A stretch of DNA of 64,000 nt from Ostrea edulis (Eukaryota): assembly GCF_947568905.1 (NCBI RefSeq), contig NC_079171.1, positions 25,172,001 through 25,236,000 of the forward strand. Direction: 5' to 3'. Within the stretch, counting starts at the first letter, position 1. Each line of letters starts with the position of its first letter. Positions 6,831 through 26,308 of the stretch are shown here, one piece after another. Position numbers and translations under genes: made by a program. The notes beneath the pieces are model-generated. The model was not told the origin of the DNA. It made no database searches and saw nothing but the letters and a program-made list of their open reading frames with translations.

Positions 6831-7270
6831 TTATCGTCGGGGTCCCAATACACGCCTCAATCTTAACCGCCGTACGGGGATTTCTGGTAAATTGTCATTA
6901 GCATTATCGGCTTCGGTATTTTCGACAACAGCAGGCACATTATCATTGTCAGTTTTGCTAACAGCATCATTGTCAGTTTTGCTAACCACATCAGTATCAG
7001 TTACAGTTTCGCTAACGACATCAGTTTCGGTTACAGTCTCGGCTGTCTCCTCGACATCCGGATTCATCGTCTCGGCCGTCCTAGTATATCGTATCGGACG
7101 ACCACGCCGACGACCGCCTGCTCCAACACGTCTCTTTCTGCGGGCAGGCGGGTTTGATTCTCCACCGATATACGTGAATGTACCATCGGGTTCCTCCCTC
7201 ACGATCACATTGTCTGAGTCGTTATCACTGCTGAGATCTCTGTAGGCGTTGGGGTCGCGCAGCTCGGCGT
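6831..7270 (-). pseudogene. 3' remnant of a paralogue of the 873-aa gene, cut at the inverted-repeat boundary
   Basis: LRDPNAYRDLSSD.DSDNV...RRGRPIRYTR...RRVLGPR matches the C-terminus of 35393-38014. Upstream sequence is the IR. Confidence 0.75.
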
Positions 7271-7293
7271 ACACATGAACATTGCACACACAA

Positions 7294-8286
7294 TTAAAAT
7301 AGTTCCTTGAAGGTTAGCGCCAACCGTCTGGCCTTCATTGATTTGGTAGCACTAACCTTCGATTTCGAAATGTTAGAGTGTGTGTACTTCGTCAGGGCTG
7401 AGTTTTGATGCTGTGGCGAGAACATCTCCGGCGAGCCACACACTCTCGTTGCCTGAATCACACGTTTAAGTTTATTGTCGTTGACCACGACTTTGGGTCC
7501 CGGTGTTCTTGCAGACTTCTTACCGCCCGTCGATTTCTCCGCCGTCGTCTTTAGTATCGCGTTATCCCTGCTGAGATTGTGTTTATTAATAAATTTCCCC
7601 AAGGTGTTGATGGCGGCGGATACCTCCGACAAATCCTTAAATTGCGCCCTGGACGCATCTATACAATTATCCAAGTCGGCCAGAATGGCCTTGATGCTAC
7701 CCAATCTACTGGATAGATCGTTTTCGATCTGTGTTGTACGGTCGTTCACTAACTCTTGCAGATGATTGACTTTAGTGTAATATACACTCTTGACGAAAAT
7801 GCTGCATTTGTCACCATATAAAAAATTGTTAAAAATGCACCACCTATTTCTAATGTGGTGATCAATGATGGGCAATGTCTCGTCCAGATATTTATCTTTG
7901 GGATTCGGTGTATCGATCGATATCCCACAGAAGAAGCACGTGGATTTGGAACAGCTGTTATCGTGGAATAATCCGGATGTTACAAGTTCGTCTATCACAT
8001 TAGCCTTCAATCCGCATCCAACATATGTCTCGCGCCTACGATCTTCGTGGGCGAAGAATTTGTGGGCCGAAGGATGAATGTATTCATGTTTCACACTATC
8101 TTCTGTCGTAATAACTTGGCGTACATTCCCATCAAACGTTAAGCTATAATCGTTTGCACTCTTCACAGTCTTACGGTCGTGCTGTCCCAATTTCACGGCA
8201 TCTGTCGATTTACCCCAAGGGTTCACACACTTAGAGTACGGCTTGGTCCGATTGTTGCCCAAAACTTTAGATTTCATCGCTGACAT
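7294..8286 (-). CDS. 330-aa protein with a divergent BIR-like zinc domain
   Basis: RRETY...LVTSGLF...CFFC-X22-H-X6-C (canonical BIR is CX2CX16HX6C). No RING. Confidence 0.75.
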   Translation of the reverse strand: MSAMKSKVLGNNRTKPYSKCVNPWGKSTDAVKLGQHDRKTVKSANDYSLTFDGNVRQVITTEDSVKHEYIHPSAHKFFAHEDRRRETYVGCGLKANVIDELVTSGLFHDNSCSKSTCFFCGISIDTPNPKDKYLDETLPIIDHHIRNRWCIFNNFLYGDKCSIFVKSVYYTKVNHLQELVNDRTTQIENDLSSRLGSIKAILADLDNCIDASRAQFKDLSEVSAAINTLGKFINKHNLSRDNAILKTTAEKSTGGKKSARTPGPKVVVNDNKLKRVIQATRVCGSPEMFSPQHQNSALTKYTHSNISKSKVSATKSMKARRLALTFKELF

Positions 8287-8435
8287 CGTGGTAAATGATT
8301 AAAAATGATACGATAATAATCTGTCTATAGTTATATTACATAAATCGCACAATACGTTGTGATAATATTATGCGCTACGGAGGATATATATAATCATTAT
8401 AAATCGAACACGTTCATTTTCTTTTACTTTCACTT

Positions 8436-10793
8436 TCACTTTCTCACTGTTGTCTTAATTCGTTTAGCTCTATCGGCCTTCTTCCGAGCATCAATACCTC
8501 GTTGTTTTATGACATGTCGAGCCTCTGCCAAATCTTCGGATACATGTCTAGCGAGTTGTGCAGCCGTAATCATAGTATATTTAAATTCTGGATCATTGTG
8601 ATGAGCTAAATTTTCCTCGTGGATCAGCTGATACCATTTAGCTTCGTTTAGTGCCATGATAGCAATAGCCATCGAACGATGCTTTAATGTTGCCTCACGA
8701 ATTTCGGGAGTATCACCGAACAATTTATCGAGAACATGGGTCATTAGCGAAGCTTTCTTCTGGCCGAGGTTACATAATGCACATGATTGCCGATCCCTTT
8801 GAGCCTCCTCGCGAAACTTGGCGCGCATACTGTTGCGGACTTCAGTAGACTTTCCGATATATCTTGATGGATTGTCGATACCATTTTTAAAACATTTGTC
8901 ACACAGGATCCAGAACTCATTTTTATCGCTGTTCTCGAAATATCTATCTAATACGGCATGTCTAGCACTGTTCGATGTTTCACCTATATCATGATTATCT
9001 AGAATCTGCCTAACCGCTTCTTTCTCAGCCTGGTTATCTATGCGTCTATTCGAGTTAGTATGTCTTGTGTAAAACTCGCTGAATGCCCACAACTCTGGCG
9101 GTTTGAACGGTAAGATTTGAGGTATCTTTATCGGTTTCGATGTTATTATGGCACTAGGCATATATGTACCAATACTTTTCCCCACTTCTTCCGGATCTGC
9201 TGTTTCGAAAAACTTTAACTTATTTGCCCACAGATCCTCGGTTAATCCGAAATTACTGAGGGCCTGACATTGGTACATTTGCGCCACTTGTTCCACTGTA
9301 GATATCGGTATTTTTTTGAACATCGATGTACGTTTGATTTTACTCAACCTTTTGTTGACGTACGCGATGCGTTCTGTGACATAATCATCACTCTTTTCAC
9401 TTTCATCGGCCGGTTCCGCAATGTGTAGAGATCTAAAATCGTCCGATACATCGGTTGCGACATCTATATCTGACAGTATACGATCTTGCACAAGGTTGTC
9501 ATTAGACGGACTCCCCCCTTCGAACATCATACTAGAGAAATCGTGATCGTGTAGATCCACGGTACCATGGTCGACTTGGGTAGGTGAATAACCGTTTCTG
9601 CTTTTAAGATCGCTCTCGTACAACGATCTTTGGGGAATGAACTCGATGTCTCCTATATCGACATTTGTCTCCTTCTGACCATTCTTCATTTCATAGTATT
9701 TTACTACTATTCTTTCCTGATCTAATTGGGCGGTTTTATTCGCTACCGACCGACTTCGTTTTCGTCCATCCCCAACACCAATCGCGACATCATCCTCTCG
9801 ATCTTCTTTAGTTTCCGCGAAGTGTTTGTTCACACTCCGAATTTGATCGTTCATCTGCTTCCACAGGTGTATGGTAGCTCCAGTTATGGAAGTTGTAACT
9901 ATTCTGATAGCGTGTGTGCTAATGACGTCTCGTCTTTCTGCCATTTCTTCTTCATTAAACTTAATGACCTTTATCAAAGTGTCACCAGTCACTCTCTTGG
10001 CAGCCGGATTCAATGGTATGGGTACGGCTACATATCGACCACGATCGTCCGGTCTCAACAACACATGTCCGTGTTCATCTAGTTCCGATATAGCTATCAA
10101 ATCCGCCATCATGTTAGCCAGGTATGAGATCGGAGGTGGCGAGTAGACTGTTTCACCTTTACTATTCAATAGCGTGGCGCTGAGCACCATCTGAGGAGAC
10201 AAGTATCTATCTGGATTATAAATTCCAGATACTACGTGCATGAATTCGAATAGTTTGTAATAGTTAAAGTGACCATAACCAGTAGCTCCTCTCGAAGTCT
10301 TCGGATACTTATGAAGCTTCATCATGTTGGTCACTATTCTAGTATACTGGTCGCCATTAAAGGCTTTCTTGGCACTTGCTACGGTAATCTGTTTAAAGAT
10401 ATCCCGTGGTATTTCCGATATACAAAAACCTTTCCTGAGGTTTGTTTCTAGTGGAATTCCAGAGAAGTTGTAGAAGGCTCTAAGTTTATGAGCTTCATCC
10501 ATATCTGGAGGACACACTCTCCTGTATCTGGTTTGTATACCTTCAGTATTAGCGATATGGTTGGCAACTTCATCGTACCCCAAGCGTTTAGCCATAGCTA
10601 CGCAGAAATGGGCATCATAATCAACTTTCATTTGATAACATCCGCCACACACCATAGCTTCACCATGACAGGCTGGTCGGATGAATATTTCGTCCGACTC
10701 ATTGTAGAACAGTAGCTTTTTATTCTTGGCGAAATATCGTTTGGCAGACATGATTATTTTGGTCGAAAATATCCTTACAACGACTGTGTTCAT
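8436..10793 (-). CDS. 785-aa hypothetical protein with Cys/His clusters
   Basis: Long ORF; CHGEAMVCGGC..HFC, LCDKC and CALC clusters. Confidence 0.85.
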   Translation of the reverse strand: MNTVVVRIFSTKIIMSAKRYFAKNKKLLFYNESDEIFIRPACHGEAMVCGGCYQMKVDYDAHFCVAMAKRLGYDEVANHIANTEGIQTRYRRVCPPDMDEAHKLRAFYNFSGIPLETNLRKGFCISEIPRDIFKQITVASAKKAFNGDQYTRIVTNMMKLHKYPKTSRGATGYGHFNYYKLFEFMHVVSGIYNPDRYLSPQMVLSATLLNSKGETVYSPPPISYLANMMADLIAISELDEHGHVLLRPDDRGRYVAVPIPLNPAAKRVTGDTLIKVIKFNEEEMAERRDVISTHAIRIVTTSITGATIHLWKQMNDQIRSVNKHFAETKEDREDDVAIGVGDGRKRSRSVANKTAQLDQERIVVKYYEMKNGQKETNVDIGDIEFIPQRSLYESDLKSRNGYSPTQVDHGTVDLHDHDFSSMMFEGGSPSNDNLVQDRILSDIDVATDVSDDFRSLHIAEPADESEKSDDYVTERIAYVNKRLSKIKRTSMFKKIPISTVEQVAQMYQCQALSNFGLTEDLWANKLKFFETADPEEVGKSIGTYMPSAIITSKPIKIPQILPFKPPELWAFSEFYTRHTNSNRRIDNQAEKEAVRQILDNHDIGETSNSARHAVLDRYFENSDKNEFWILCDKCFKNGIDNPSRYIGKSTEVRNSMRAKFREEAQRDRQSCALCNLGQKKASLMTHVLDKLFGDTPEIREATLKHRSMAIAIMALNEAKWYQLIHEENLAHHNDPEFKYTMITAAQLARHVSEDLAEARHVIKQRGIDARKKADRAKRIKTTVRK

Positions 10794-10914
10794 ATATTGA
10801 AAGTGATACTGTATTAATAATATAAAATCGGTTTATTACAAATAACATGTGTGCGGTATATAGTACAATTGACTACATAATACATTTTTGTTACAATTTG
10901 CATCAATGGTGATA

Positions 10915-11685
10915 TCACAAAATACTAAGAGGTGACTTGGATCTGGGGCGTTTTCTTGTCTTTTTCTTTGATTCTCTACGTGTTTTCGGTCGTGGTTGTG
11001 GTGCTGGTGATGATAATGCTGAAAATGTTATTAAATCGTCTTCTTCGTCCAACTCTACATCGCTCGTCTTCGACTGTATGTCTGCATCAAAAGACGTTGT
11101 TGTGATAGTTTCCACAACAGAGTTTTCGAGTTCCATATCATCGTCACACTGGTCGTCTCGACAGAGGTGTGGCGTCGTGCTCGGATTATCAACATCCTCT
11201 AATTGAATAGGACAATTGTCAAATCTCATTTTTTTCCGTATATTATCTAACGAACTCGTTGCTGAGCGTTTCTTTAATCTGGCGTCTCGTCGTCTAATGA
11301 TAGTCATAAACACATCGTGATCTTTCTCGGCATCGTACACTACGCTATGTAACTCGGGTACATCCTTAACGACGCTAGCTATTTTCACTTGAGTTACGGG
11401 TTCGACGTCAATATCTACATCATCATCATCACCATAATCTTCTTGGTATCCTAACATACAATGTATACTCGTCAGACCACTATTGTTAATTGCAGTATAG
11501 CCTCGCTTCTGTGGCGATCGTGTTTCATTTACATTGCTATCGTAATCACTATCGTTATCAGGATCGGCATAATCGTCTACTTCACGCTCGTCGTCGGCAT
11601 CATCGAAGCATTCGGTATTATCGTTTTCATGGTCGTCACCATATACAAATTCTTCGTCTGGATCCATGATGGTTTTTTTGTACAC
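10915..11685 (-). CDS. 256-aa acidic protein with basic NLS-like C-terminus
   Basis: ORF with promoter palindrome at about 11758. Confidence 0.8.
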   Translation of the reverse strand: MYKKTIMDPDEEFVYGDDHENDNTECFDDADDEREVDDYADPDNDSDYDSNVNETRSPQKRGYTAINNSGLTSIHCMLGYQEDYGDDDDVDIDVEPVTQVKIASVVKDVPELHSVVYDAEKDHDVFMTIIRRRDARLKKRSATSSLDNIRKKMRFDNCPIQLEDVDNPSTTPHLCRDDQCDDDMELENSVVETITTTSFDADIQSKTSDVELDEEDDLITFSALSSPAPQPRPKTRRESKKKTRKRPRSKSPLSIL

Positions 11686-12015
11686 ACTGTTGATTTGGGT
11701 TGTATATATGTTTTACTAATGTTGGACAACTTATAAATACAATGTGATATATTAAAGGTCGAACACGTTGGATATAAATATCGTTTCTAATAGTAAGTTT
11801 TTAAATCATCACATCCTCTGTGTTTGTAAGTTTGTAAAAATAACTGAAATTCTGTTTTAAATTTGTCGATACATATATTTAGCAAAACATCAAGCATACA
11901 CACGAATATATATAACAGTACAATACGATCATAAAATAAACTAATGTTGAATTATACACACGTTATCATAACATAAAGTTTTTCACAAATGATTCAGTTT
12001 GGCGAAGAGTCATAT

Positions 12016-13935
12016 TCAAGATTCATCGGCATCTTTGGACACTTTTGTAGATTTGGTGGAAATGGTTTCGGTAGTCTTGCGTTTACAACCACAAGTTGAC
12101 ACCCGTGGTCCTATAGGTCGGCGAACCAATGATTCACGATCGACATACCGCATATGCATATCATCGATGTGTAGGGGTTCGGAGAACTGATGGGTACGAG
12201 TTTCGGAAGTCTGAGACTCTGTATCATCTCGCTTGTTTTTCGCACCACTAAACCACCCGTTGGGGTCGTGATACGAATCGCGTTTATCATCTGAATCGTC
12301 CGAATCGGAATCTGAATCGGGGTATTCAGAATCCGAATGTTCTCGTTCTGAATCACGATCGCAGTTTTGATCGGCACGTCGATCATTTTGGTCGCCTGGT
12401 TGATATTCCATCTCCTCCTCACACTTGTTCATGCAATACATGTGACATGGTACTCTAAGTTCAACAATTTCGTGACCTTGATAGTACAGATCCTTAATCG
12501 GTGCTATTGGATGCAACTCAAAGTCGCGCAAGACCAACAGCATAGGTCTGTTCATTCGCTCCCGCATGCGAGCACGACCATCGTTTTTGATCATGTATCC
12601 GTTAGATAATACTGTCAGAATCCTGTCGAGCTTATGTCCGCGGCGTACCTGATTTAACGTGTCCCCAGACGACGTTTGTGCTACCACAATCACAATATCT
12701 GCGTTCCAAGCCGAGTCGAACGCGTATTCTACATTATCTATCCCAACAGATACTGTTAATAATTTATGAAATTCCGACCATTTCTTAACACTGTCGGTGA
12801 TGAAATGGTAATATTGGGTAGGCGTCGATATTATCAAGGGTTGTCCTTCGCCTGATAATGACAACGCGTTAAGGATCGTGTTGCTCACATGAGAACAGTT
12901 CTCTTGCTTGGAACCCGGCGATCTGATGGCTCGTATTCTGTTGGTATTCAGGTGATCATCTGAACCGGCTGTCATTACGTGTACTATTTCGGGGTCGATC
13001 GTGTATACGTCTGGATACGTGGGTTGCGTTACGCGATGCGCATGTACGGTAGTCGACACATTCATATCCACTTCAAATCGAGCCCCGGGTCTCGCCAGAC
13101 TCCTAAAATTCAAATCTTTAGCATCGATCCATGTCATGTCGGTTGGACCTACAGAAACAACCTCCGTGGATAGCACGATAATTTTGGGTTTCCCAACCTC
13201 CTTTAACCGGATGATGTCTGTTCCATTGATATAGGCATATCCCGAGTCAAGGCACACCATGGTTTTCCTGAGCACTTCTCGTTTCGATGAATTCGTGTCA
13301 CCAGAGTCAGCTTCCATTGGTGGGACGAGCAGGACTATGATGTCGTGTCCTTTGGCTTCTAACCATTTTTTACCAGCGTGAATGAAGGGTTTCTCGAGTC
13401 CCATAACATAGACCGTTTGGTTATCCGATCTGGTACTCGGTGCGATATCCGCATCAGCAACATTCGATTGTGGCAAAATTCTTTCGTGCTTGATCAACTG
13501 TACCAGTCTATGCCACTCAGATTCTGGGGCGACAATTCCAGTCTTCATCCTCGTGGAAGCTTTGGCGACCGTGTCTATGATGGCATCGATCGCAGCTCGA
13601 TTGTTCAGCATAGCATTCGCCCCGTTTAAAATCCTGTGCGCCATGTCCAATTCGAGCATTTCGAGCCTTAGATCACGATGCATATCATTAATGTAGAGTG
13701 TATCTGGAGGTTGGCTGTTAATGTAATGCTCGTGCATGCCCATACTTCGGATGAATTCTGGAATTAGCGATCCTGATCCGCGTGCCAATTCTTTGCGAAC
13801 CCTGGTCACCTCTTCCATAACGGTAACCCATCCACTACTTCTTCTCATTTTGCCGCATTGGTTGCTACACCCAAACATAGTGATTTTGTTGTGAATGTAT
13901 CGTATTTTATGAAATGAGACAAGATTATTCAGCAA
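12016..13935 (-). CDS. 639-aa protein with two degenerate CRESS-Rep SF3-helicase-like domains (likely start 13878)
   Basis: SDNQTVYVMG..VCLD..KPKIIVLS, and DNVEYAF..DIVIVV..VLSNGYMIK..RPMLLVL..HEIVEL, follow the motif order of Rep helicase domains. No Walker A GKS. Confidence 0.75.
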   Translation of the reverse strand: MLNNLVSFHKIRYIHNKITMFGCSNQCGKMRRSSGWVTVMEEVTRVRKELARGSGSLIPEFIRSMGMHEHYINSQPPDTLYINDMHRDLRLEMLELDMAHRILNGANAMLNNRAAIDAIIDTVAKASTRMKTGIVAPESEWHRLVQLIKHERILPQSNVADADIAPSTRSDNQTVYVMGLEKPFIHAGKKWLEAKGHDIIVLLVPPMEADSGDTNSSKREVLRKTMVCLDSGYAYINGTDIIRLKEVGKPKIIVLSTEVVSVGPTDMTWIDAKDLNFRSLARPGARFEVDMNVSTTVHAHRVTQPTYPDVYTIDPEIVHVMTAGSDDHLNTNRIRAIRSPGSKQENCSHVSNTILNALSLSGEGQPLIISTPTQYYHFITDSVKKWSEFHKLLTVSVGIDNVEYAFDSAWNADIVIVVAQTSSGDTLNQVRRGHKLDRILTVLSNGYMIKNDGRARMRERMNRPMLLVLRDFELHPIAPIKDLYYQGHEIVELRVPCHMYCMNKCEEEMEYQPGDQNDRRADQNCDRDSEREHSDSEYPDSDSDSDDSDDKRDSYHDPNGWFSGAKNKRDDTESQTSETRTHQFSEPLHIDDMHMRYVDRESLVRRPIGPRVSTCGCKRKTTETISTKSTKVSKDADES

Positions 13936-14061
13936 TCAGTGAAATGATCGTTCTCCAGTAAACCTGAGCTTGTTTATATATCCCAAATTTGGTTTATTAA
14001 CATGAACGTGTTAAATGCTTTAAATCGATCGGAGTTCAGCGAAAGGAGGGCAGCCCTTTGA

Positions 14062-14135
14062 CGGTGTATATATATATATATTATTAGAGCGGCACGGAGG
14101 GCAACTCCGCAGCTAAAGAATCGAACGTGTTCGAC
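14062..14135 (+). repeat. Single origin-like repeat unit between divergent Rep-derived genes
   Basis: CGGTG(TA)nTTATTAGAGCGGCACGGAGGGCAACTCCGCAGCTAAAGAATCGAACGTGTTCGA. Confidence 0.85.
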
Positions 14136-14242
14136 AGTCCTTTGGGTATATATACCAAAAATGAAAATCAAAATCAAAAACTCCAGTCTTAGAACATCGA
14201 TTGCTATTTATGTGTATACATATCTGCTTTTATTAAGAAACC

Positions 14243-14956
14243 ATGTCAGATTTGTCACAAGCAATGCTCGACGCCGACGCCATGGCTGAGTACGAAAATA
14301 ATATGATCATCAAGGCGGCCACTGATCTGAATTCTGGACGTTTGACATCTCAGATGTACGATATGTATGGAGATTGGTATGGGAGGAATATGTCGCGCAT
14401 AATGCTTAAAGCGAGCTATCTGAGGGATCCAGCGACGTACGTCGCAAGGGAGTTGAGACTTAAACGACCCATGTTACCCGATCTGAGAAATGCAGCCGTT
14501 CAGCGAAGGGGAACTCGTTTGGCAAACAGAGAGAAGGCGGTGAAGTCTGCACATGAAAGTAAACCGGAGGTTCACGACACGACCCAATCGATGTTACAAT
14601 GGCAGATTCGTGTGGCCGATTTAGCTGCGTTTACTAACTCTGACAATAGAGTCCTGTTTGTGGTGGGCAAGACTAAAGGACAAGGAAAATCTTGGATGGC
14701 GCAGTATTTGCACAAAACACTGAATTCAAACATGTTTCGTACGTGTTGTTCTGACTATTTGGCGCTATCTGGTAACATCACCAAGTATTCCGTGTTTGAC
14801 GTGGATTGTGACGAGTGCGATTTCGTCTACAGCACCTTCTACAGACACCTGGATGATACCGACGTGAAGGCTATAGTGTTTTGTAACTTCTTCCCGACGA
14901 AAATGCCGCATAGTGATGTGTTTTACATCGATCAGTACGATAAGTACCATGTGTGA
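14243..14956 (+). CDS. 237-aa CRESS-Rep-like oligomerisation plus SF3 P-loop protein lacking the endonuclease domain
   Basis: LQWQ...DNRVLFVVGKTKGQGKSWMAQYL (Walker A at 14666-14692), VFDV (Walker B), IVFCNFFP (motif C). Resembles the nanovirus-type Rep C-terminus. Confidence 0.8.
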   Translation: MSDLSQAMLDADAMAEYENNMIIKAATDLNSGRLTSQMYDMYGDWYGRNMSRIMLKASYLRDPATYVARELRLKRPMLPDLRNAAVQRRGTRLANREKAVKSAHESKPEVHDTTQSMLQWQIRVADLAAFTNSDNRVLFVVGKTKGQGKSWMAQYLHKTLNSNMFRTCCSDYLALSGNITKYSVFDVDCDECDFVYSTFYRHLDDTDVKAIVFCNFFPTKMPHSDVFYIDQYDKYHV

Positions 14957-15133
14957 GACATTTGTTATCTGTTATATGTATTGTCAATGTTTATGAACTT
15001 ATATTTCAATGTACGCATGTGTTTCAATAAAAATTGCTTGAATTCAATACGACTGTTCTGTGGTTAAAGTTTGGGTATAAAAATGATTCCGTTTTGATGA
15101 TCATGGAGGCTAATATGGAGGGCAGCCCTTTGA

Positions 15134-15320
15134 CAGTGTATATATATATATATTATTAGAGCGGCACGGAGGGCAACTCCGCAGCTAAATGATCGAACGT
15201 GTTCGAGACCTGGGGGAAACCCACTATCAAAAAATCGAAGCTGTTCGAGGTTTTAAGAGAACAATAGCTATGGAGGATGCCCTCCGTGCCTCTCCAATAA
15301 TATATATATATTATATACCG
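15134..15320. repeat. Palindromic pair of origin-like repeat units (P5)
   Basis: Inverted arms with the same spacer orientation as P1. Confidence 0.85.
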
Positions 15321-15577
15321 GCAATGTGGCCCTCCGTAGTTAATTGGATGGTGATAAAAATGTGTACCGTCGTATCAAATAACCGCTCATGAGAGAGAAA
15401 AAACTAGCTATATCTTTGTAACAATCGCTTTTATTTATATGTGTTCATTTTTATATATACGCATACATATATAGCAACGATGTATAATTACAATCAATCG
15501 TATCACACAGTGTTCTTAAAATTTCATAGCTTAATAACAGTCTTATACTATATGTTTCTGTAACAAATCTAGTTTCA

Positions 15578-16159
15578 TCACAGTCCAACTTTCATTCTAT
15601 ATATAGTCGACAGTTCCTCCCTAAGCATTCTAGATCTAGACAAACGGAGAGGTTTGGCCTCCGATAGTACGGACCGCTTTCTCTTCACTATCTTAGCCAA
15701 TTGTTCAATCAACCTATCCTGTTCGATGTTTGCAGACACGACTTCTAATAAGATGTCAATGACGTCGTCCGTGCGCAACTTGTGTATTTCTTCTGGCCTA
15801 CAACCATACATCTGTGCGATTGCTTGATGAATGGTATCCTTGTCGACGGTTTCAGTTATCATTTCTACAGTATGATCTCCCGACCCAAATCCACTTCCTT
15901 CATTCCCATTTTCTGTAGCAGGTTTAGCCTTGTGTCGAGAATCATCGTGATCTATGCTTATATGATGAACGTCCTTATGAGAATCCTTATGGTGATGGAT
16001 GTTAGGCTTGTGGATAAATTCACCCCCGGAACCTTCTTCAATCTCGACACGATGATCTTTATCTGCCACTAAAAAATCACCATCTATAGGTTGGCGAACG
16101 GCAGCAGATAATGCTCCACTCACACATAGTGCTACGATAACTACACCAAACTTAACCAT
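15578..16159 (-). CDS. 193-aa secreted protein (signal peptide, acidic Ser-Gly motifs, KRKRS)
   Basis: MVKFGVVIVALCVSGALSA; EEGSGG; EGSGFGSGD. Confidence 0.8.
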   Translation of the reverse strand: MVKFGVVIVALCVSGALSAAVRQPIDGDFLVADKDHRVEIEEGSGGEFIHKPNIHHHKDSHKDVHHISIDHDDSRHKAKPATENGNEGSGFGSGDHTVEMITETVDKDTIHQAIAQMYGCRPEEIHKLRTDDVIDILLEVVSANIEQDRLIEQLAKIVKRKRSVLSEAKPLRLSRSRMLREELSTIYRMKVGL

Positions 16160-16244
16160 GTTTTCTTGTGAATGTACTTTTCGACAGAATAATGACTAGT
16201 CATGTTTTACGACAACATCATCTCATCCATTTAAATAAAAGAAA

Positions 16245-17084
16245 TTACACAGATTGACTACATAGCATGTCGTAATCTGTTAGAAGTGCAACTATGTCGT
16301 TTATACATTTGAGAATAAATGTTACGTCGTCTATAGACATATCCTTGTACTGTTCCTGCACGAGTATGCCAGCTACCGCCATGGCTTCCTTAAACCCGGT
16401 CATGGGCATGTTTATAAACCTATCGTTATTTAACACATCTAACTTAGTCAAGAGTGGTTCTACTGCCTTAACGCCCACCAAGTTGGTAAAGTGTTCGCCG
16501 TTTGCGTTACAGTTCGGTCCAGCACCATCTAACAACGCTCCCAAGTTATGTATAAAGGCTCCAATATGTGCGTTTTTTTTATACGACAACTTAGTACTCG
16601 ATGCCAATCGCTTGTCTCTAGCTTCTTGTATAGCAGCGATAAACCCGTTCTTTCTCATGCGAACGTTGTCGTTGAGATTATGAGGACCGTATGCTACCAA
16701 ATCCCTAATGATATAGCGCTTATCTTTAGACTTCCCACGCCTTTGCAACTTTCCGGTCTCTTCATATTCCATCCCATTACGTTTCATTCTCTTGACAACT
16801 GCTATAGGATCCAAAGTCGGAACTATCCAAGTTATAGTCGGACATAGTCTAGTCAAGCTTTTCCAACGGCGTTTTAGTTCTAATTGCACGTACCCGGTTA
16901 GAACAGGAACGTCATTGTCACCGAGAGTCTTAACGACTAACCTATAATACGAGTCTAGAGATGATAATTTCTCGTAGTCGCTATAATCCCAATCTACGAT
17001 TCGAAAAATCCAATTACACTTGGGGCAATCCATTTTGTAAAAAAAAATATCTGTGACACCCTCTTGCAGATGAATTGAATACAA
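16245..17084 (-). CDS. Protein with inactivated CRESS-Rep HUH-endonuclease-like N-terminal domain (likely start 17033)
   Basis: NWIFRIVD (motif I), PVLTGYVQL (motif II, PHLQG equivalent with His lost), KRRWKSLTRLCP..W, VKRMKRNG..EETG (motif III position, Tyr lost). Confidence 0.75.
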   Translation of the reverse strand: MYSIHLQEGVTDIFFYKMDCPKCNWIFRIVDWDYSDYEKLSSLDSYYRLVVKTLGDNDVPVLTGYVQLELKRRWKSLTRLCPTITWIVPTLDPIAVVKRMKRNGMEYEETGKLQRRGKSKDKRYIIRDLVAYGPHNLNDNVRMRKNGFIAAIQEARDKRLASSTKLSYKKNAHIGAFIHNLGALLDGAGPNCNANGEHFTNLVGVKAVEPLLTKLDVLNNDRFINMPMTGFKEAMAVAGILVQEQYKDMSIDDVTFILKCINDIVALLTDYDMLCSQSV

Positions 17085-17240
17085 TCGTGTTCTGTTTATA
17101 CATAGATTTATTTTAATATATTTTATGTAACTTATACATATAGATATATATCGATGTAGTACAAATTATACAGGTATAAAACATATAACTAACAATCATG
17201 ATCGCATACACACATATACATAATGTTCTACACATATAGC

Positions 17241-18317
17241 TTAAAGTTCTTCCACAAATTCCTCGTCACAACTGTCACCATCCTCCTCGCATATCGACTC
17301 TTCAATACTCTCGATGGTGTTGAAGGTATTTATGATATTATACATCGCAAGTTCAGATCGCGAGAGCGGTTGCTTGCGGAGTTTCAGTATGTCCATGTTT
17401 ATCTTAACTACGTTGCCCAAGAACCAAACGATTCTCCAAACGCCATGTCGGGCAGCAGCGGTCGACATAAAATCCATATGAACAGAGGTGATTTCACCAC
17501 ACACAAGTTCCAACATAGGCTTCAATGCGATAATCGCATTAGTCCTGATCTCTGCAGCCTCGGGTGAATTGTCAGGTTTATTGTACGCTACGTCGTCCAT
17601 GTACCGAGCGAAATCCATGAGGCGAGTCAGCAATTCGATCCAGAAATCTTCCTTGGTTGGATCACCATTCCTCTCATCACATCTCTGCTTATGCCATTTC
17701 AAGATACGCGAACTGGCAACCGTAGAATTCTCAACGTTCTCGATCTCCAACTGTGATAATATATCTTCCATGGAATCAGCTGTGATGAAATCTTCAAACG
17801 ATATGATTCTATTGATGTGCGATTTCACATCTGGTAGTATATCGATACTACTCCTGAACATGTCGGCAGGCTTAAACTTCTTGGACTCGTGTGCTGGAAC
17901 TTGGAAATTTAACGACTTTGTAGACTCGCTAAATACAGCCCCGTCATCATACTTTCTTTTACGGCCGGTCTCAACATTTGCCACAACTGATTCGTCGCTC
18001 TGAGAATGTTTCTTTGTAGAACAGATCGTGATTTTAGGAGCCAACCCGGCTCGCGTCTCCTTTGAGTATATATCATTGAGAGCAGCTTCGATTTCCGAAA
18101 CCCTAGCGGCAGCATTTCGAGTTAAAATATTTACACAATCGTTATAGCTCTCTAGCGCTTTCACAATTTTTCGCAACCCCTTATACTTAACATCCAATGA
18201 TACAACCCGTTTACCACGAACCATCTGTTGAAGTGGAGCCGGGTATTCAATGGGTAACCTCAATATATCGTTACAGTACGCTATGAAATCGGTCGTACTA
18301 ATGCTTTGGTTCATCAT
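17241..18317 (-). CDS. 358-aa hypothetical protein
   Basis: Long ORF; RKRK NLS-like; promoter palindrome at about 18416. Confidence 0.8.
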   Translation of the reverse strand: MMNQSISTTDFIAYCNDILRLPIEYPAPLQQMVRGKRVVSLDVKYKGLRKIVKALESYNDCVNILTRNAAARVSEIEAALNDIYSKETRAGLAPKITICSTKKHSQSDESVVANVETGRKRKYDDGAVFSESTKSLNFQVPAHESKKFKPADMFRSSIDILPDVKSHINRIISFEDFITADSMEDILSQLEIENVENSTVASSRILKWHKQRCDERNGDPTKEDFWIELLTRLMDFARYMDDVAYNKPDNSPEAAEIRTNAIIALKPMLELVCGEITSVHMDFMSTAAARHGVWRIVWFLGNVVKINMDILKLRKQPLSRSELAMYNIINTFNTIESIEESICEEDGDSCDEEFVEEL

Positions 18318-18618
18318 GGTTATTATTTAGTTCGTATGTACTAAATACAAGGTGAGCTGGAATAATCCTTGGGTTGTCACGAATGTATTAATATACACCA
18401 CAAAACTCCAATATATCGAACGTGTTGAACACTTCATTAAAGCAAACTATGAGTGTTCTCTGAAGATGTTACGACACTAAATAATCACATAGATATCAAA
18501 TGCTATATGTAACATGGTTTATTATTTAACTACATGATCATATATAATAAACATACATGCGATATAAGTATTATATATACACACAAACAATAATGTTGCC
18601 ATTGATTGATATAAAGTT

Positions 18619-19086
18619 TCACAAAGAGTCTGTATCATCTTCGTTCCCCACAACGGCGTTGTATCTCTCATAGTCATCTTCGGTCATTTCCTCATGGTTG
18701 ATATCACGCCAGAATCTTTTATACTGCTCGTAGTCATACAAGTTCACCTCCGGATTGCGAGACACGAGTTCCTTAATGAAATCGTCAGGCGATTCACTAG
18801 ATTCATCAGACTCCACATCGGCACCATTAGATTTAATATCATTTATGATATCCCCCAGTAACTTTTTGCATGTGGCTGTTATAGCAAAAATGTGGTCTGC
18901 ACTAACACCATCATCGCATTCATCATCAATATCGCTATCGTCACAACAATCATCCGTATCAACTTCTGGGTCAGACTTGTAATCTGTACCGAGACTCATG
19001 ACATTCTGGACTTCTAGGAGACCTTCTTGATTCTCTGGTATATCCATAATAACGTCTTCTGAAACTTCAATATCCTGACCATCCAT
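18619..19086 (-). CDS. 155-aa acidic hypothetical protein
   Basis: ORF with D/E bias like its neighbours. Confidence 0.75.
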   Translation of the reverse strand: MDGQDIEVSEDVIMDIPENQEGLLEVQNVMSLGTDYKSDPEVDTDDCCDDSDIDDECDDGVSADHIFAITATCKKLLGDIINDIKSNGADVESDESSESPDDFIKELVSRNPEVNLYDYEQYKRFWRDINHEEMTEDDYERYNAVVGNEDDTDSL

Positions 19087-19186
19087 GTTATCAATCTCCT
19101 TTTATATATGGTGATACGACCAAGTTCGTATAATTAAGATGCTGAGTTGTGCTAGGTATTAATTAACACGTATATATATATACAAT

Positions 19187-19972
19187 TTATAATTTGTAGT
19201 CTGTAACACGTTTAATATTTTCAGTATCGAATTCGTGACGTTCCTTATCTAACTCATCCCGAACATTTCTGTAGTCCAATTTGTGCACGTGATAAACTGC
19301 TAGTGGTGAAGGAAGTATTTGGAGGAGGTGGTACACAGAACATTTGTCCTCATCGTGTGTCGCGATAAAACTTTCTTTTTCATCTGTCGGGTAAGAATCT
19401 TTCATGAAATCGTCCATCGCAAAATTGAGGTACCGATCTTTCGACAAACGTTGTACACGGGTCGATTTGACATGAGGTGCAAACAACAGATCTGTCACTC
19501 GGAGCACAATTGAAGTATCGATCTTGGCTCCACGCAGTATAGAGTTATAGCTATCGAGATCGAAAGCCGGAACATCGTGTAGTTGAGGCTCATAGTTGTT
19601 GAAATGAGCATTGACGTTTTGGACACCAGCGATAGCTGTATAATGAATTAATGCGGGATTATTATTCTGCAATCGCTTAACCGTCATCATATATCCCCAG
19701 TCTATGCGGGTATATATAATCACATACATGGTTCCAGTTTGATATAGTTGTGCGCTATCGTTGTTAGCAGCACGACTCCGTACAGCAAATTTCTTCAGCT
19801 CCGGTAACCTAACTATGCGATGTTTGTCCAATTCTGTATCATCGAAATTCTCGCGATTGGCGGGACAATGGAAATAATCGTCCATACACACGCCATAGTC
19901 ATCATCATACGACTCTATTTTTTCAATCACATCCTTGGTGACATAGTAGTCGTGAGACATATTGGATCCCAT
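19187..19972 (-). CDS. 261-aa hypothetical protein (possibly a very degenerate Rep-helicase fold)
   Basis: ORF with palindrome at about 20060. VPAFDL weakly resembles Walker B. Confidence 0.75.
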   Translation of the reverse strand: MGSNMSHDYYVTKDVIEKIESYDDDYGVCMDDYFHCPANRENFDDTELDKHRIVRLPELKKFAVRSRAANNDSAQLYQTGTMYVIIYTRIDWGYMMTVKRLQNNNPALIHYTAIAGVQNVNAHFNNYEPQLHDVPAFDLDSYNSILRGAKIDTSIVLRVTDLLFAPHVKSTRVQRLSKDRYLNFAMDDFMKDSYPTDEKESFIATHDEDKCSVYHLLQILPSPLAVYHVHKLDYRNVRDELDKERHEFDTENIKRVTDYKL

Positions 19973-20291
19973 TTTGTTAGCGTATAGTCGAACAATACAA
20001 TCGTTTGAGTGCAGATTGTAAGAGTCATTAAATGAAGCGAGTTCTTTATAATCAAAATGTCGAACTCGTTCATTATTTACTGAAGACAGTCGTCATTCTG
20101 TGACTCACCAAATATTAAATGATTCAATACGTATATATGTTTACCAATAGTTTTTATTATACAAGTGATTATATAAAACAATATCAAACCAACAGGTTAA
20201 CATGATTCAGAAGCATTCCATAACATAAGATTAAATGCACATTTAGTTTCACGGTATACACATATTAACAAAAACGAATTTCCATAATAGT

Positions 20292-20801
20292 CTAGATACG
20301 CGACCGTTTCTGTACATCTGAGGAACATCCAGGGTTTGCATCGTCCATAACGTCCAATTTGCGTTTAGATGGCCGACTTGTGAATGTTCTCCCGTCATGG
20401 ACTGGATATACGACATATTCGTGTGGCACCAATGATCCCATCTCGACCGCAACAATATCTTGTTCGGAAACGATGTCGAAATGTCTAAGTAAAAATACAC
20501 ATTTCTTAGCACATTCGTTCAATTTTATCATCTGCTTCAGTACATTTTCGTATAGTTCAATGTTAGCACCGCTACGCCCGGACACAACCCAACCACTGTT
20601 CACCATGGTTGATAATAGATTTGTGACCGACGGTGTGTCGCGAGTATCCGCACCCATCATTTTACGAACTATTTTCAATGTCAAGTTGAGATCGAGTCTG
20701 GCCACCAACATATCATCGATTGTATCTTGAACTATCATATTAGCTCCAGAATAATTAGACAGGATCCTGTAGATTGTAATTAACTTCAATTTAGTATCCA
20801 T
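20292..20801 (-). CDS. 169-aa hypothetical protein
   Basis: ORF; palindrome at about 20882; KRKL NLS-like. Confidence 0.75.
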   Translation of the reverse strand: MDTKLKLITIYRILSNYSGANMIVQDTIDDMLVARLDLNLTLKIVRKMMGADTRDTPSVTNLLSTMVNSGWVVSGRSGANIELYENVLKQMIKLNECAKKCVFLLRHFDIVSEQDIVAVEMGSLVPHEYVVYPVHDGRTFTSRPSKRKLDVMDDANPGCSSDVQKRSRI

Positions 20802-20892
20802 ATTCTCTGATTAGTCTTCTTGCTGGTTTTGATTTTTTATTTTGGAATGACCGGTGTGCTTATATTTATACTACATATAAATCGAACGTGTT

Positions 20893-21345
20893 CTAGTAAT
20901 CAAGACTATCTGCGGACATTTCTACATCATTAGTCGATGGGTAAAATCTAGCAATCCTTCTTTTAGCATTGATCCTACGTTTATCGGGTTTTTTATATCG
21001 TCTCATAGTAGGTATGGGCGATTCTCGACGAGGTTCAACCAAGTCTTCGACCACACGTGTATATCTCCTTTTACAAACTTCTCGTTCACATTCTTGTTGG
21101 TGACATTCTTGGTCATCTTGATTTATGGGTGTGCGATAATAGTAATTATCAGCATCGTCGCCAGACTCGTAATCGGACTCAACTTCATCATCCTTATTAC
21201 GTATTCGTGTTGGTAGAGCAACGCTTGCTTCCAGAGCTTCCACGAGCTCGGCCATATTCATAGATCTAGCCCGTTTTTGGGGTTTGTTTTTTTGGTCGAA
21301 TTTTGGTGCCGACACATTCATGATTGTGCACGTTAATACCAACAA
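20893..21345 (-). CDS. 150-aa hypothetical basic/acidic protein
   Basis: ORF sharing a bidirectional palindrome (about 21452) with the IAP gene. Confidence 0.7.
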   Translation of the reverse strand: MLVLTCTIMNVSAPKFDQKNKPQKRARSMNMAELVEALEASVALPTRIRNKDDEVESDYESGDDADNYYYRTPINQDDQECHQQECEREVCKRRYTRVVEDLVEPRRESPIPTMRRYKKPDKRRINAKRRIARFYPSTNDVEMSADSLDY

Positions 21346-21556
21346 ATGATAGATGTTAAATTTTGTGATAAAATATGGAGGAAATATTTTAGAATTGTCA
21401 GTTGTAGTAATATCTATAAATAATATTGTTTAACGCCAGAATTATATAAAATCGAACACGTTAGATGTTATTTCTCATACAGATAGATTTTTAGTGTCGG
21501 TGTATATATGCGTTCATTATTATTAATGTTCGATATCAATCGAATGCAACCGATGA

Positions 21557-23350
21557 TTGACGATGGAGTCCCCTTTCGATTCATATGTGAAGCGTAAGAA
21601 TGACGGTTGTAGCGAAGACTTATTGATGGATAACGTAATGATTCGAATTAGCACATTTGCCAATTACCCATCGAACAGTATATCTACATTTAGGCTTGCG
21701 AGAGAAGGGTTTTATGTTGTCAGTGGTACCAGTGACACATTGGCATGTTTTGAGTGTAAAGCTAAAGGTGCTGGTTTCATGACCGACGCTGATAATGTAA
21801 ATGGTATTCACAATACGACATGCTCGTTCAAGAAAATACTCCCTAACCAGCCGGTGGTCGAGCCACTCGATCCCATGGAGAGACGTATCGCAGGAGCCGC
21901 AGCAGCTATAGCGCTACAACAAGTACGACCACCCGAAGATCTAACGATGCCTCAACCCAAAGAGTCAACGCCACCTTCGCATACAGAACTCACACTACCT
22001 AAACCCAAAGAGTCAAGGTCGCCTCCAGTCGATGACCTAACAGCACGTCCACCCAGGACGTCAAAAAGATCTCCACCCGAAGAACTACCGTTACCTTCGC
22101 ACGAAGAGCTAATGCTACAGCCGCCCAAAATACCATCTCCCACAAAGGCTCCCGCAGCAACGTTTGTGCTGTTTACTCCCTATACACAATCCACTCCAGC
22201 GATATTCCGCCCAACATTCGATAAAACTTTGGATGTCATTGAAGATCCTCCATCACCGGCACCAACAGACGTTCTTCCACCACCAATCGATAAAACTTTG
22301 GATATCATCGAAGCTCCTTTATCACCGATGCCAACAGACGTTCTTCCACCGCTAATCGATAGGACTTTGGACTACATCGGTCCCGATCCAGAAATTGTTA
22401 GCGAGTCGTCTGTACCGACACCAGAGCAAAGATCGCCAGACGTTCTAAAATATGCCGACATACAATACGAGGTCGCCAAGTTAATGGCTGGATATAAACG
22501 AGAAATGTGGAGTACGGAACCAATTCATAATGGTATGGTGAATGAACCCGATCGTCTCAAATCGTTTTCAATGTGGCGATGTGTTACCGGAACGACGCCA
22601 ACGACACATAGCTTAGCGAACTCAGGTTTTTTTTATATCGGAGACAACGACTCTACATCATGTCACCACTGTGATCTTAAGTTAAAGAACTGGGAACCCA
22701 AAGATAACCCTTGGATCGAGCATGCTCGCTGGCAACCACGTTGTGATTTTTTACTTAAGGCGGTGGGGTCACGATATATCGCCACTGTACAAGCCGCAGC
22801 CAAGACCGATTCGCATATGTCATGTTCCAAAATCTCACAGATATTAAAGGAAGCTAGAGTCGGGAATAATGTCGCAACAGATCTTGCGAATCACCCTGCT
22901 GTGATAGACCATATTAGCAAAGGGTATGATAGTAATCGAATAGCAATTACGCATAAGATGATAATTGCCGATGCATCATTTAAACATGTTACAATGAATG
23001 ATGTCGCGAACGCCATTCTAGACAATACATTTACACAAGCTCGAGTGGGATCTCAACAGAATGGAATTACTAAAGATGAGCTGAGACTAGTCAAGGAATC
23101 CAAACTTGCTGATTTGGAAAAATTATTGAATGACAATTCTAATGATTCCTTGTCAGATGTACAAAAACAATACATCGAGTTAAAGCGTCGGATAATTTGC
23201 AAAATCTGTAAGAAAGAAGACGCTTGTCTCGTTTTTTTACCATGTGCACACTTGTCTGCGTGTAGCCCGTGTTATTCTAAAATGAAAGGTCGCAAATGTC
23301 CATTATGTAACGCTACTCACAGGAGCACCGTAAAGGCTTTCTTGACGTAA
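21557..23350 (+). CDS. iap: Inhibitor of apoptosis: degenerate BIR, Pro-rich repeats, canonical BIR, RING
   Basis: CHHC-X16-H-X6-C BIR (NWEPKDNPWIEHARWQPRC); C-terminal CKIC..PCAH..C..C..CPLC RING. Confidence 0.92.
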   Translation: MTMESPFDSYVKRKNDGCSEDLLMDNVMIRISTFANYPSNSISTFRLAREGFYVVSGTSDTLACFECKAKGAGFMTDADNVNGIHNTTCSFKKILPNQPVVEPLDPMERRIAGAAAAIALQQVRPPEDLTMPQPKESTPPSHTELTLPKPKESRSPPVDDLTARPPRTSKRSPPEELPLPSHEELMLQPPKIPSPTKAPAATFVLFTPYTQSTPAIFRPTFDKTLDVIEDPPSPAPTDVLPPPIDKTLDIIEAPLSPMPTDVLPPLIDRTLDYIGPDPEIVSESSVPTPEQRSPDVLKYADIQYEVAKLMAGYKREMWSTEPIHNGMVNEPDRLKSFSMWRCVTGTTPTTHSLANSGFFYIGDNDSTSCHHCDLKLKNWEPKDNPWIEHARWQPRCDFLLKAVGSRYIATVQAAAKTDSHMSCSKISQILKEARVGNNVATDLANHPAVIDHISKGYDSNRIAITHKMIIADASFKHVTMNDVANAILDNTFTQARVGSQQNGITKDELRLVKESKLADLEKLLNDNSNDSLSDVQKQYIELKRRIICKICKKEDACLVFLPCAHLSACSPCYSKMKGRKCPLCNATHRSTVKAFLT

Positions 23351-23489
23351 TTATCTAATCAAAGACTGAATAAAGATTTGTATAAAGTTTGTCAATACTT
23401 GTATTTTATAATTAAGTCATATGCATATTTCAACAGTTATGTCAAATATGTACAAAAATAAACAGTCATCAAAATGATCACATTGGAGT

Positions 23490-24521
23490 TCAAATCTTGT
23501 ATTCACTCTTATTCCCACTGTTTGGACGCGCAGGGAATTCCTGTCTGGGAAAATCGTCATTGTCACGATTGGGCACCATTTCTTTCTCAGCAACACCTTT
23601 GCTTATAACTTGCAAGGATCGTGCGACCAGCTTACGTTTATCATCTTCGCTCAGGGTAGAACTCTTCTTAGATACAGCAGGTCGCTTTCCGGTACCATCA
23701 AACAATCCTAATAATTGCGCCGATGTATCGGACGGTTTGGACTTTTGCCGCTTAACAGATTTTTCCCTTGGTCTCACCTCTGGCGTTTCAACACGAGTCT
23801 TGTATACGGCCACGTTCGGTACATCCTCTGAACTCACAGGGGTTTCACGGACTTTGTGTTTTTTATACATATAACCGTCACACGTATCAGTTCTCCTTTT
23901 CTGAATCCTACTCTGATACATCAGTTTCGCTTGAACCCTGTCTTCTTCGGTCATCGTGTTGTTACTAACATCATACGATCCAACCTCAATTTCTGTAACA
24001 ATGTCTGTCAATCCTTCGAATTTGACATCGTAGTCTTGTACGGGAACAGTCTCATCTGTATAGATCAGGATATGGATGTCAGATTCGATAGCTACACCTT
24101 CACCATCGCAAATTCTAAATCTCTCTGTGAGATTTCTAACAAATGTCACAAACGCCTTATGTTGGCGAGTTTGCATTGTCACATCTTTGTTGTAACGAAT
24201 TACAACTAACCGCTTATCCGTCAAATTTCTAAATATCTCGTCATATCTCTGTGACTCGGTGGGCATCCCGACATATCCAACCTCCCCGTATACAAGCTTG
24301 TGCTTCAGATACATAACAAATTTCATAAATTGAGAACTCTTCGCGATGACTGCGAGCGGTTTTCCATTCTTCAGTTTTAGAGTCTCCATCGTATTGTCGA
24401 ACCAATATGGGGTCGCATGTGTATATTCCGAACATTGTCGATCGACATCCGCATGTTCGGCGCTCCCAAATTCAACTCTGCTCATCAATACGTTGGTCTT
24501 AGTGCGCATCGGTTGCTCCAT
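23490..24521 (-). CDS. 343-aa protein with probable degenerate Rep-helicase-like N-terminal domain
   Basis: YWF..PLAVIAK..FVMYL..LVVIRY..FVRNLTERF..IHILIYTD motif order; palindrome at about 24625. Confidence 0.75.
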   Translation of the reverse strand: MEQPMRTKTNVLMSRVEFGSAEHADVDRQCSEYTHATPYWFDNTMETLKLKNGKPLAVIAKSSQFMKFVMYLKHKLVYGEVGYVGMPTESQRYDEIFRNLTDKRLVVIRYNKDVTMQTRQHKAFVTFVRNLTERFRICDGEGVAIESDIHILIYTDETVPVQDYDVKFEGLTDIVTEIEVGSYDVSNNTMTEEDRVQAKLMYQSRIQKRRTDTCDGYMYKKHKVRETPVSSEDVPNVAVYKTRVETPEVRPREKSVKRQKSKPSDTSAQLLGLFDGTGKRPAVSKKSSTLSEDDKRKLVARSLQVISKGVAEKEMVPNRDNDDFPRQEFPARPNSGNKSEYKI

Positions 24522-25696: not shown

Positions 25697-26308
25697 ATGG
25701 ATGACATGAATTCTTTCCCAACCCATAACCGTGAGGAAGAAATACTTGATAGGACAGGTATCGATATTACTACACTTTCAGCCTTCACGACTATGTTGGA
25801 GATGGAGTTCGATCGCCGCTCGGTGATAGAAGCATTTGGATCTTTGATTGGTGACAGTTACGACAGTAGTTATATACAAAGTATCAGTGCTGAATGTGTC
25901 TTAGACAGTCTGCTCGCAATGAACGCGACTACCAAGATTGCGAGTGAGGATGTAGATGAAACTGCGCTTCAGACAATTATCACCGAAAGCGAAGCTACTG
26001 CCAAAGCTACAGTTGGGACTACAGCCGAGACTTCGTTGGGACTTGCAGGTCTTGCGGAAGAGCCTAATATCAGATACGATTTTGAGCGCGCAGTTTATGA
26101 TATGGATGCTGGTCTATTATTAACTCAGACCAAACACTTGAAAGATATGTTAATTTGTAAAATTTGTATGGTTAAGAGCGCCTACGTATTGTTACAACCT
26201 TGTGGACATTTGTGCGCTTGCGCCGAGTGTGCTAAACAACTTAAACGTTGTCCCATGTGTCGTATTCGTGTTCATCTAAACAAATCTATACATGTAGATT
26301 TGATGTGA
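25697..26308 (+). CDS. IAP-type RING finger protein without BIR
   Basis: CKICMVKSAYVLLQPCGHLCACAECAKQLKRCPMCR. Confidence 0.88.
   Translation: MDDMNSFPTHNREEEILDRTGIDITTLSAFTTMLEMEFDRRSVIEAFGSLIGDSYDSSYIQSISAECVLDSLLAMNATTKIASEDVDETALQTIITESEATAKATVGTTAETSLGLAGLAEEPNIRYDFERAVYDMDAGLLLTQTKHLKDMLICKICMVKSAYVLLQPCGHLCACAECAKQLKRCPMCRIRVHLNKSIHVDLM

Follow-up and report, generated by a model that had tools for sequence, protein, structure and literature searches.

Probable descent of P-loop-less pseudo-helicase domains from a CRESS Rep in an IAP-rich element of Ostrea edulis

Do the long open reading frames (ORFs) that surround a Rep-derived gene in the DNA of Ostrea edulis themselves descend from a Rep helicase domain, and if so, what was lost and what was kept? 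The window analysed is a stretch of 64,000 nucleotides (nt; assembly GCF_947568905.1, contig NC_079171.1, positions 25,172,001 to 25,236,000 of the forward strand). The first-pass annotation had seen in it repeated duplication and exaptation of a captured Rep domain, represented by a 237-amino-acid (aa) protein, and had named as degenerate copies a 639-aa ORF, a 343-aa ORF and, more weakly, the ORF at 19187-19972. This proposal was partly supported: its core stood for the 639-aa ORF and its membership list was corrected. On balance, we favour the explanation that a helicase domain captured from a circular Rep-encoding single-stranded DNA (CRESS) virus lost its catalytic motifs, was copied into a family and has been kept in a large IAP-rich element. 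That the family is of CRESS rather than cellular origin appears probable. The ORFs and domains concerned are as follows.

12016..13935, minus strand: 639-aa ORF with two tandem P-loop-less domains of superfamily 3 (SF3) helicase/AAA+ type and an acidic tail; identical copy at 47089-49008, plus strand
13111..13578, minus strand: segment 1 of this ORF (aa ~120-275), a pseudo-helicase domain
12466..12903, minus strand: segment 2 of this ORF (aa ~345-490), of predicted AAA+/SF3-type fold
36080..36502, minus strand: domain (aa ~505-645) of an 873-aa ORF (35393-38014)
23997..24389, minus strand: domain (aa ~45-175) of the 343-aa ORF (23490-24521)
19187..19972, minus strand: 261-aa ORF, at noise level in all tests

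Translation of the 639-aa ORF probably begins with the ATG at 13878, giving 620 aa, because its relative P0003 (69% identical) begins at the same Met. The ORFs and the motifs quoted in the first-pass annotation lie where it had placed them (SDNQT at aa170, DNVEY at aa400, DIVIVV at aa413, VLSNG at aa442 and PMLLVL at aa464; SDNRV at aa133 of the 237-aa ORF). The reported absence of the Walker A lysine was confirmed, as GK[ST] was found in none of the 639-, 343-, 261- and 873-aa ORFs, compared with 119/120 Reps; the entire P-loop is gone, not merely the lysine. The Walker B Asp/Glu and the motif C Asn are likewise missing from the equivalent strands, in a Rep register that rests on the structural model and on non-significant alignments.

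By their sequences, both segments of the 639-aa ORF and the 873-aa domain are members of one homologous family. Pairwise alignments gave a consistent register across these three and the 343-aa domain. When each candidate was left out of the profile and aligned end to end, segment 1 gave a Z of 4.9, segment 2 of 4.4 and the 873-aa domain of 5.2; each scored above 400/400 shuffles and 30/30 decoys and ended at the expected place. The 873-aa domain, overlooked previously, is the nearest to Rep of the family; it is preceded by a long acidic region and followed by basic runs. The 343-aa ORF reached a Z of 2.0, with 1/30 decoys equally high. A local HMMER search ranked the candidates in a different order, with the 343-aa ORF as the top non-training match (11.6 bits, E 0.006) and the 873-aa ORF at 9.0 bits (E 0.03; 1/4770 shuffles higher). 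The claimed membership of the 343-aa ORF thus holds in a weakened form, somewhat probable and with no direct signal against Rep. The 261-aa ORF, which had seemed Rep-like by eye, was rejected: it scored like shuffles under three gap settings, was not found by the local family profile and gave Z of 0.6, ~0 and 0.5 in the leave-one-out, Rep end-to-end and 139-Rep tests, so that its membership is unlikely. Accordingly, repeated duplication is upheld for both segments of the 639-aa ORF and for the 873-aa domain; the case of the 343-aa ORF is weak, and that of 19187-19972 is unsupported.

The suggested kinship of the family to the 237-aa protein did not hold up with the family profile, against which that protein gave a Z of -1.3. 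With descent from the 237-aa protein not shown, one capture followed by duplication cannot be distinguished from two captures. The echo between SDNQTVYVMG of the 639-aa ORF and SDNRVLFVVG of the 237-aa protein is measurable (28.9 bits across 39 aa in a search of 15 proteins), but it is probably accidental, because the family register puts TVYVMG on strand 2, paired with TVSVG of segment 2, and makes TGIVAP the Walker-A strand. In one MAFFT run SDNQTVYVMG was an insertion, and neither alignment puts it on strand 1.

AlphaFold2 (AF2) modelling of segment 2, from an alignment of six rows comprising family members only and no Rep, gave a pLDDT of 70 and a pTM of 0.71, and the model shows an AAA+ fold. 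Its elements follow the order helix-strand-helix-strand-helix-strand-helix-hairpin-strand, with strands at 32-36, 60-63, 80-85 and 131-136 and a hairpin at 113-123. Only two residues join strand 1 to the next helix, where the P-loop belongs, and the beta-hairpin before the motif C strand is retained and carries basic residues. A Foldseek search of a viral library gave 15 matches at E<=0.001, of which 6/6 with names were Reps (best E 7e-5, TMq ~0.5). Among the best 50 rows, 14/18 named matches were Reps and the other four were helicase, primase or AAA+ proteins. The TMq reached 0.55 for viral rows, versus 0.26-0.45 for the PDB rows listed. The first-pass annotation's call for a shared fold was therefore answered for segment 2, with a predicted AAA+/SF3-type domain whose best viral matches are CRESS Reps. 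Its claim of a Rep-like motif order in the 639-aa ORF was sustained as to two homologous segments and the fold of the second, while the sequence resemblance was not above chance. The other family members would share the AAA+-type fold by homology to segment 2.

Two clear Rep pieces lie <=3 kb from the 639-aa ORF.

14243..14956, plus strand: 237-aa Rep-derived protein, with an oligomerisation-like region and an SF3 helicase; copy at 46068-46781
16245..17084, minus strand: 279-aa ORF (ATG at 17033) that begins with a Rep HUH endonuclease domain (N-terminal 100 aa)

When 1.84 billion proteins were searched with a profile built from the 237-aa protein and its one relative, a single additional match emerged, P0004 (E 4e-4). 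It is a full CRESS Rep (PF02407) with 23% identity to the 237-aa helicase piece. From P0004, 120 Reps were gathered into a profile from which the window proteins were left out. Against the 477 reading frames of the window it scored both copies of the 237-aa ORF at 36.7 bits and the N-terminus of the 279-aa ORF at 17.8 bits (E 4e-5), the best shuffled or reversed control reaching 4.9 bits, and the profile-profile probability of the 237-aa ORF to Rep was 98%. This protein has Walker A (GQGKS, aa146-150), Walker B (VFDVD, aa184-188) and motif C (IVFCN, aa211-215). It lacks an HUH domain, motif B' falls in a gap of 13 residues, and the Arg finger is missing, with Val where >=90% of 62 aligned rows have Arg after an invariant Ser and Asp. 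In the 279-aa ORF the HUH motif I-III positions are present, and the motif II His and motif III Tyr are missing in the alignment to P0078; judged by these residues, the domain is catalytically dead. It was the only HUH-like match among the 477 frames and is without helicase, and no frame fuses the two. At the level of sequence, the 237-aa protein shows no recognisable relationship to the pseudo-helicase family and stands apart from it as a less diverged piece of a Rep helicase; both it and the dead HUH protein, likewise less diverged, may derive from a later capture. Nothing significant emerged when PDB sequences were searched with the 237-aa ORF, with the family alignment or with a 785-aa ORF. 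The Rep relatives P0008 and P0088 are encoded on long contigs in ENA (61.6 kb and 5.39 Mb) and may be other integrated or captured Reps.

The pseudo-helicase candidates were also compared with Rep directly. Scanned over the same frames, the 120-Rep profile detected none of the 639-, 343-, 261- and 873-aa ORFs, and their profile-profile probability to Rep was <=1.4%, among the decoys. Scored end to end against Rep, both segments and the 873-aa domain gave Z of 1.2-2.4, the 343-aa domain gave 0.8-1.4, and the 261-aa ORF and segment 2 of the relative gave ~0. By mean pairwise score against 139 Rep domains, only the 237-aa protein and the 873-aa domain exceeded 40/40 shuffles (Z 4.9 for the latter; five controls gave Z -0.5 to 1.3, one reaching Z 3.0 on maximum score), and the 343-aa domain gave no direct signal. 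The family profile matched the Rep profile in local mode with a probability of 1.1%, above 40/40 column shuffles and over the motif C strand only, and gave nothing in global mode. Each of the four rows listed for the 873-aa domain by the language-model feature search Atlas was a Rep helicase cluster of the Cressdnaviricota (0.84-0.87), scores below 0.9 being a lead only.

Besides this ceiling on the Atlas scores, several points weigh against descent from a CRESS Rep helicase. No significant Rep-profile match was obtained for segments 1 or 2 or the 343-aa ORF, and for both segments Atlas returned unnamed clusters (0.90-0.91) and ResIII/DEAD (0.87), not Rep. The domain borders were set after the pairwise alignments, and the leave-one-out and HMMER family scores are therefore somewhat inflated; locally, HMMER gave segment 1 just 2.6 bits and segment 2 1.6 bits. 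The full-length AF2 model of the 620-aa protein was of low confidence (pLDDT 28), with no Foldseek match at E<=0.001. Segment 2 is the only domain that folded confidently, its alignment included other candidates, and the viral library contains viral comparators only. Among solved structures, VIA gave MCM a Z of 9.1, dynein 8.9 and SV40 large T 8.2 (root-mean-square deviation 4.6, 151 aligned). These were followed by poxvirus D5 (Z 7.3) and hepatitis A 2C (Z 7.1), and AAA+ and further P-loop proteins made up nearly every row. The best 50 included no Rep chain of a circovirus or parvovirus, and a second VIA comparison was headed by cellular AAA+. Foldseek against the PDB gave no match at E<=0.001, with p97, HslU, DnaA and ClpA in the top rows and papillomavirus E1 (E 0.011) among the matches listed. 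SF3 and cellular AAA+ are thus not separable by solved-structure searches.

An inactivated AAA+ protein of the host or of another virus (MCM, dynein, STAND or D5-like), unrelated to the adjoining Rep pieces, would account for the VIA ranking, in which MCM, dynein, Rubisco activase and STAND stand level with or above SF3 helicases, for the PDB rows just named and for the failure of the family profile to see the 237-aa protein. We consider such an origin improbable: for the 873-aa domain Atlas, with all clusters to choose from, points to CRESS Rep helicases, this domain has a direct Rep signal, and TMq is higher to Reps. In addition, to judge from the sequence, the last element of the domain seems to be a strand, after which comes a low-complexity tail, without a helical lid. 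Still less probable is the view that only segment 2 and its tandem twin are helicase-derived, the other ORFs being unrelated alpha/beta proteins or functionless decaying relics. The borderline scores of the 343-aa ORF and the blank results of the 261-aa ORF would fit it, but the 873-aa domain is backed by three separate tests (Atlas, leave-one-out and the 139 Reps), and the ORFs are long and intact, the 639-aa ORF also in a relative that is ~30% diverged. As to function, the dead domains might act as decoys, either by poisoning the Rep ring of a co-infecting CRESS virus or by regulating the 237-aa protein through co-assembly. A chain with two such domains in tandem would look like neighbouring subunits of a ring, the genes for the 639- and 237-aa proteins point away from a shared repeat, and the portions available of PMC10193959 consider that a large virus may be inhibited by the CRESS Reps it has captured. 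Such a role seems doubtful to us, since the domains are unlike the 237-aa protein or the sampled Reps in sequence, which leaves a kept interface in question, and no oligomerisation domain was recognised in them in the 120-Rep profile scan.

Under the favoured explanation, capture of a CRESS Rep domain followed by loss and copying, a large IAP-rich DNA virus-like element would have taken up CRESS Rep sequence and retained pieces of it. From one old helicase-derived domain the P-loop, the Walker B acids and the motif C Asn would have disappeared, and the dead domain would have been copied twice into the 639-aa protein, once into the 873-aa protein and probably once into the 343-aa protein. With these three features missing, the domains would not hydrolyse ATP, and the fold could act as a binding scaffold. 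The retained hairpin and ring-forming surface would bind DNA or partner proteins, and the acidic regions may influence the chromatin and transcription of host or virus, plausibly at the dispersed repeats of the element. Non-catalytic nuclear scaffolds with a regulatory role are our first, tentative choice for these domains; in second place we put decoys or accessory subunits of a Rep ring. A nuclear role is proposed because of the basic residues in the hairpin of segment 2, the divergence of the 639- and 237-aa genes from one repeat copy, and the long acidic stretches of the 639- and 873-aa proteins together with their basic runs, which could be nuclear signals.

Identity of P0003 to the 639-aa ORF is 75% in segment 1 and 70% in segment 2, compared with 67% in the N-terminus, 64% in the linker and 52% in the tail. 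Read differences fell on the third codon position in 10/16 cases in the 279-aa ORF, 6/7 in the 785-aa ORF and 1/1 in the 639-aa ORF (counted over 40 listed differences, with 169 more existing). These data lend indirect support to the domains being kept by selection, and we infer exaptation from the intact ORFs and from domains that are better conserved than the tail in the relative.

A bolder possibility, which we regard as improbable, is that the element represents a so far undescribed group of large DNA viruses that integrate into mollusc genomes and control their replication with a dismantled CRESS Rep. The dead HUH protein would recognise AT-rich repeats, the 237-aa protein would be the nucleotide-binding ring protein and the P-loop-less domains would be accessory subunits. 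Papilloma- and polyomaviruses made the step from a rolling-circle Rep to an origin-binding helicase, and the oyster system, if so built, would be an independent, split repeat of it.

The repeat to which these proposals refer is ~100 nt long and is present in 16 copies at 5023-46981 of the window (0 expected by chance). It is built of GGAGG motifs flanking a TA tract, with a short palindrome, and copies form head-to-head pairs at four places. Copies that bear on the Rep-derived genes, and one further example, are the following.

14043..14138, plus strand: copy between the divergent 639- and 237-aa genes
15112..15340: two more copies in opposite orientations, closing the 237-aa cassette (one at 15112-15215)
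39541-39644: further copy, given as an example

The repeats may be origins, enhancers or promoters. The repeat contains a nonamer one letter away from nanovirus nonanucleotides. A strong stem-loop of CRESS type was unsupported, the folding Z being only -0.6 to -2.2 in 7/7 copies tested. Contig depth was raised over the repeat bins, which suggests further copies outside the window; no match was found in viral or metagenome contigs. The 237-aa gene stands alone between two direct repeats 1072 nt apart (14046-15207), the size of a nanovirus component. P0001, a relative of the 237-aa protein, lies on a contig of 1067 nt, which fits the same layout or reflects assembly breaks at repeats. No circle-forming joint was present among the 15 joints listed (102 more exist). 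Half a copy (a GGAGG arm and a short TA tract) lies at 2213-2243 on the minus strand, near the apparent host-element junction; it is weak because it was found by motif and missed by nhmmer.

The surrounding element is dense with intronless ORFs from ~2.8 kb of the window on and includes a 9.6-kb inverted duplication.

7271..16894: left arm of the inverted duplication; other arm 44130-53747, 99.9% identical

It is probably a low-copy element integrated in oyster DNA, because the first 2.2 kb are host-like, one contig of run X1 bridges 2163-3211 and coverage in run X22 is low. X1 is a possible source of the window and hence not independent; its depth is higher over the 7271..16894 arm than over 3336-4669. 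In X22, from an independent study, most of 7.3-19.3 kb was covered by ~1-3 reads, with 1382 million letters read. The window or part of it was present in 20/24 runs listed, from 7 studies, and no RNA run was among those listed with it. Within the host-like part, read depth is very high at ~1830-2035, and the ORF at 3-905 resembles what we take to be a retroelement gag, Pfam having given it no name.

BIR and RING genes were identified within the element by Pfam. Four intronless BIR(-RING)-type genes stand in tandem at 55019-62827 (minus strand), with further BIR and RING genes at 21557-23350 (plus), 25697-26308 (plus) and 7294-8286 (minus); a tRNA-Ile(AAT) gene at 54770-54844 (minus) lies inside the element and adjoins this IAP array. 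Older paralogous blocks at 2864-7289 and 32542-35400 share 67-76% DNA identity. A truncated copy of the tail of the 873-aa ORF (6831-7289) was cut by the inverted duplication, and the HUH N-terminus of the 279-aa ORF is cut off by its right arm. An unnamed family of coiled-coil-like ORFs with ~30% identity occupies 26616-27428, 29071-29793 and 29780-30121 (minus). The ORFs at 15578-16159 (minus) and 43225-44175 (plus) have, by eye, hydrophobic starts like signal peptides, have no family match and are candidate secreted or envelope proteins.

No herpesvirus core gene (terminase, polymerase or capsid) was found at a credible level among 17 ORFs in Pfam and 25 queries in PHROGs, the window covering part of the element. 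Pfam (these 17 ORFs and four more proteins) and PHROGs (25 queries) gave nothing for the candidate pseudo-helicase ORFs. Homolog searches returned one close relative per gene and one Rep, and no related loci were present among the viral and metagenome contigs searched. The literature searched, to which supplements and most subscription papers did not belong, held no account of the element or of P-loop-less Rep paralogs, and the available portions of PMC5552708 and PMC13159474 do not mention such an element. The window appears to hold an undescribed large IAP-rich element of oyster DNA with almost no relatives in the databases searched. Such IAP-bearing elements could raise counts of oyster IAP genes. 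Motif loss followed by amplification would isolate whatever non-enzymatic role an SF3 fold can play, and the element would offer a cleaner system for testing the function of the virus-captured Reps apvRep and U94.

How the oyster domains stand to known systems can be set out by donor and carrier. The CRESS or nanovirus-alphasatellite type of Rep (PF02407 and SF3) is the source of the 237-aa and HUH pieces and shares the fold of segment 2; unlike it, no oyster chain joins HUH and helicase, and the catalytic residues are missing except for the Walker motifs of the 237-aa protein. The pseudo-domains fall outside the active SF3 family because its defining motifs, when tested for, were absent. Orthopoxviruses reportedly hold inactivated host enzymes with folds kept without catalytic sites, as a preprint title has it (bioRxiv 10.1101/2022.11.22.517515). 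In both cases an enzyme fold persists in the genome of a large virus and is recognised chiefly through structure prediction; the donors there were hosts, going by that title, whereas here the likely donor was another virus and the domain was amplified. With the Malacoherpesviridae, as portrayed in the portions available of PMC5552708, the element shares the mollusc setting, BIR genes, dense intronless ORFs and a large inverted repeat, but none of its 17 ORFs searched in Pfam, from a window covering part of the element, is a herpesvirus core gene.

Closer parallels are provided by Rep genes captured in large viruses, here as given in the portions of PMC10193959 available. U94 of human herpesvirus 6 (HHV-6) is a single parvovirus-derived Rep gene with an inactive endonuclease and with Walker A/B and helicase functions kept. 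Like the oyster genes, it is the Rep of a small single-stranded DNA virus co-opted by a large DNA virus, its endonuclease inactive; unlike the oyster family, it is one gene and retains Walker A/B. The closest precedent, within the same portions, is avipoxvirus apvRep-1 to -5, five captured CRESS Rep genes that are endonuclease-only or helicase-only except one. Their HUH motif is inactivated, Walker A and B are kept, they are under purifying selection with a function stated there to be unknown, and they are likened to HHV-6 U94. Common to both systems are a CRESS Rep captured in a large DNA genome, several genes, simplified domains, a dead HUH and the lack of an Arg finger. The differences are that apvRep-2 and -5 keep the Walker A GK and Walker B and were found by sequence, whereas three or four oyster domains are without a P-loop and beyond profile detection, two being fused in tandem, and that the oyster carrier is a mollusc-associated, probably integrated element. 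By this analogy, the oyster capture would resemble that of apvRep but would have gone further, through P-loop loss, tandem fusion and amplification.

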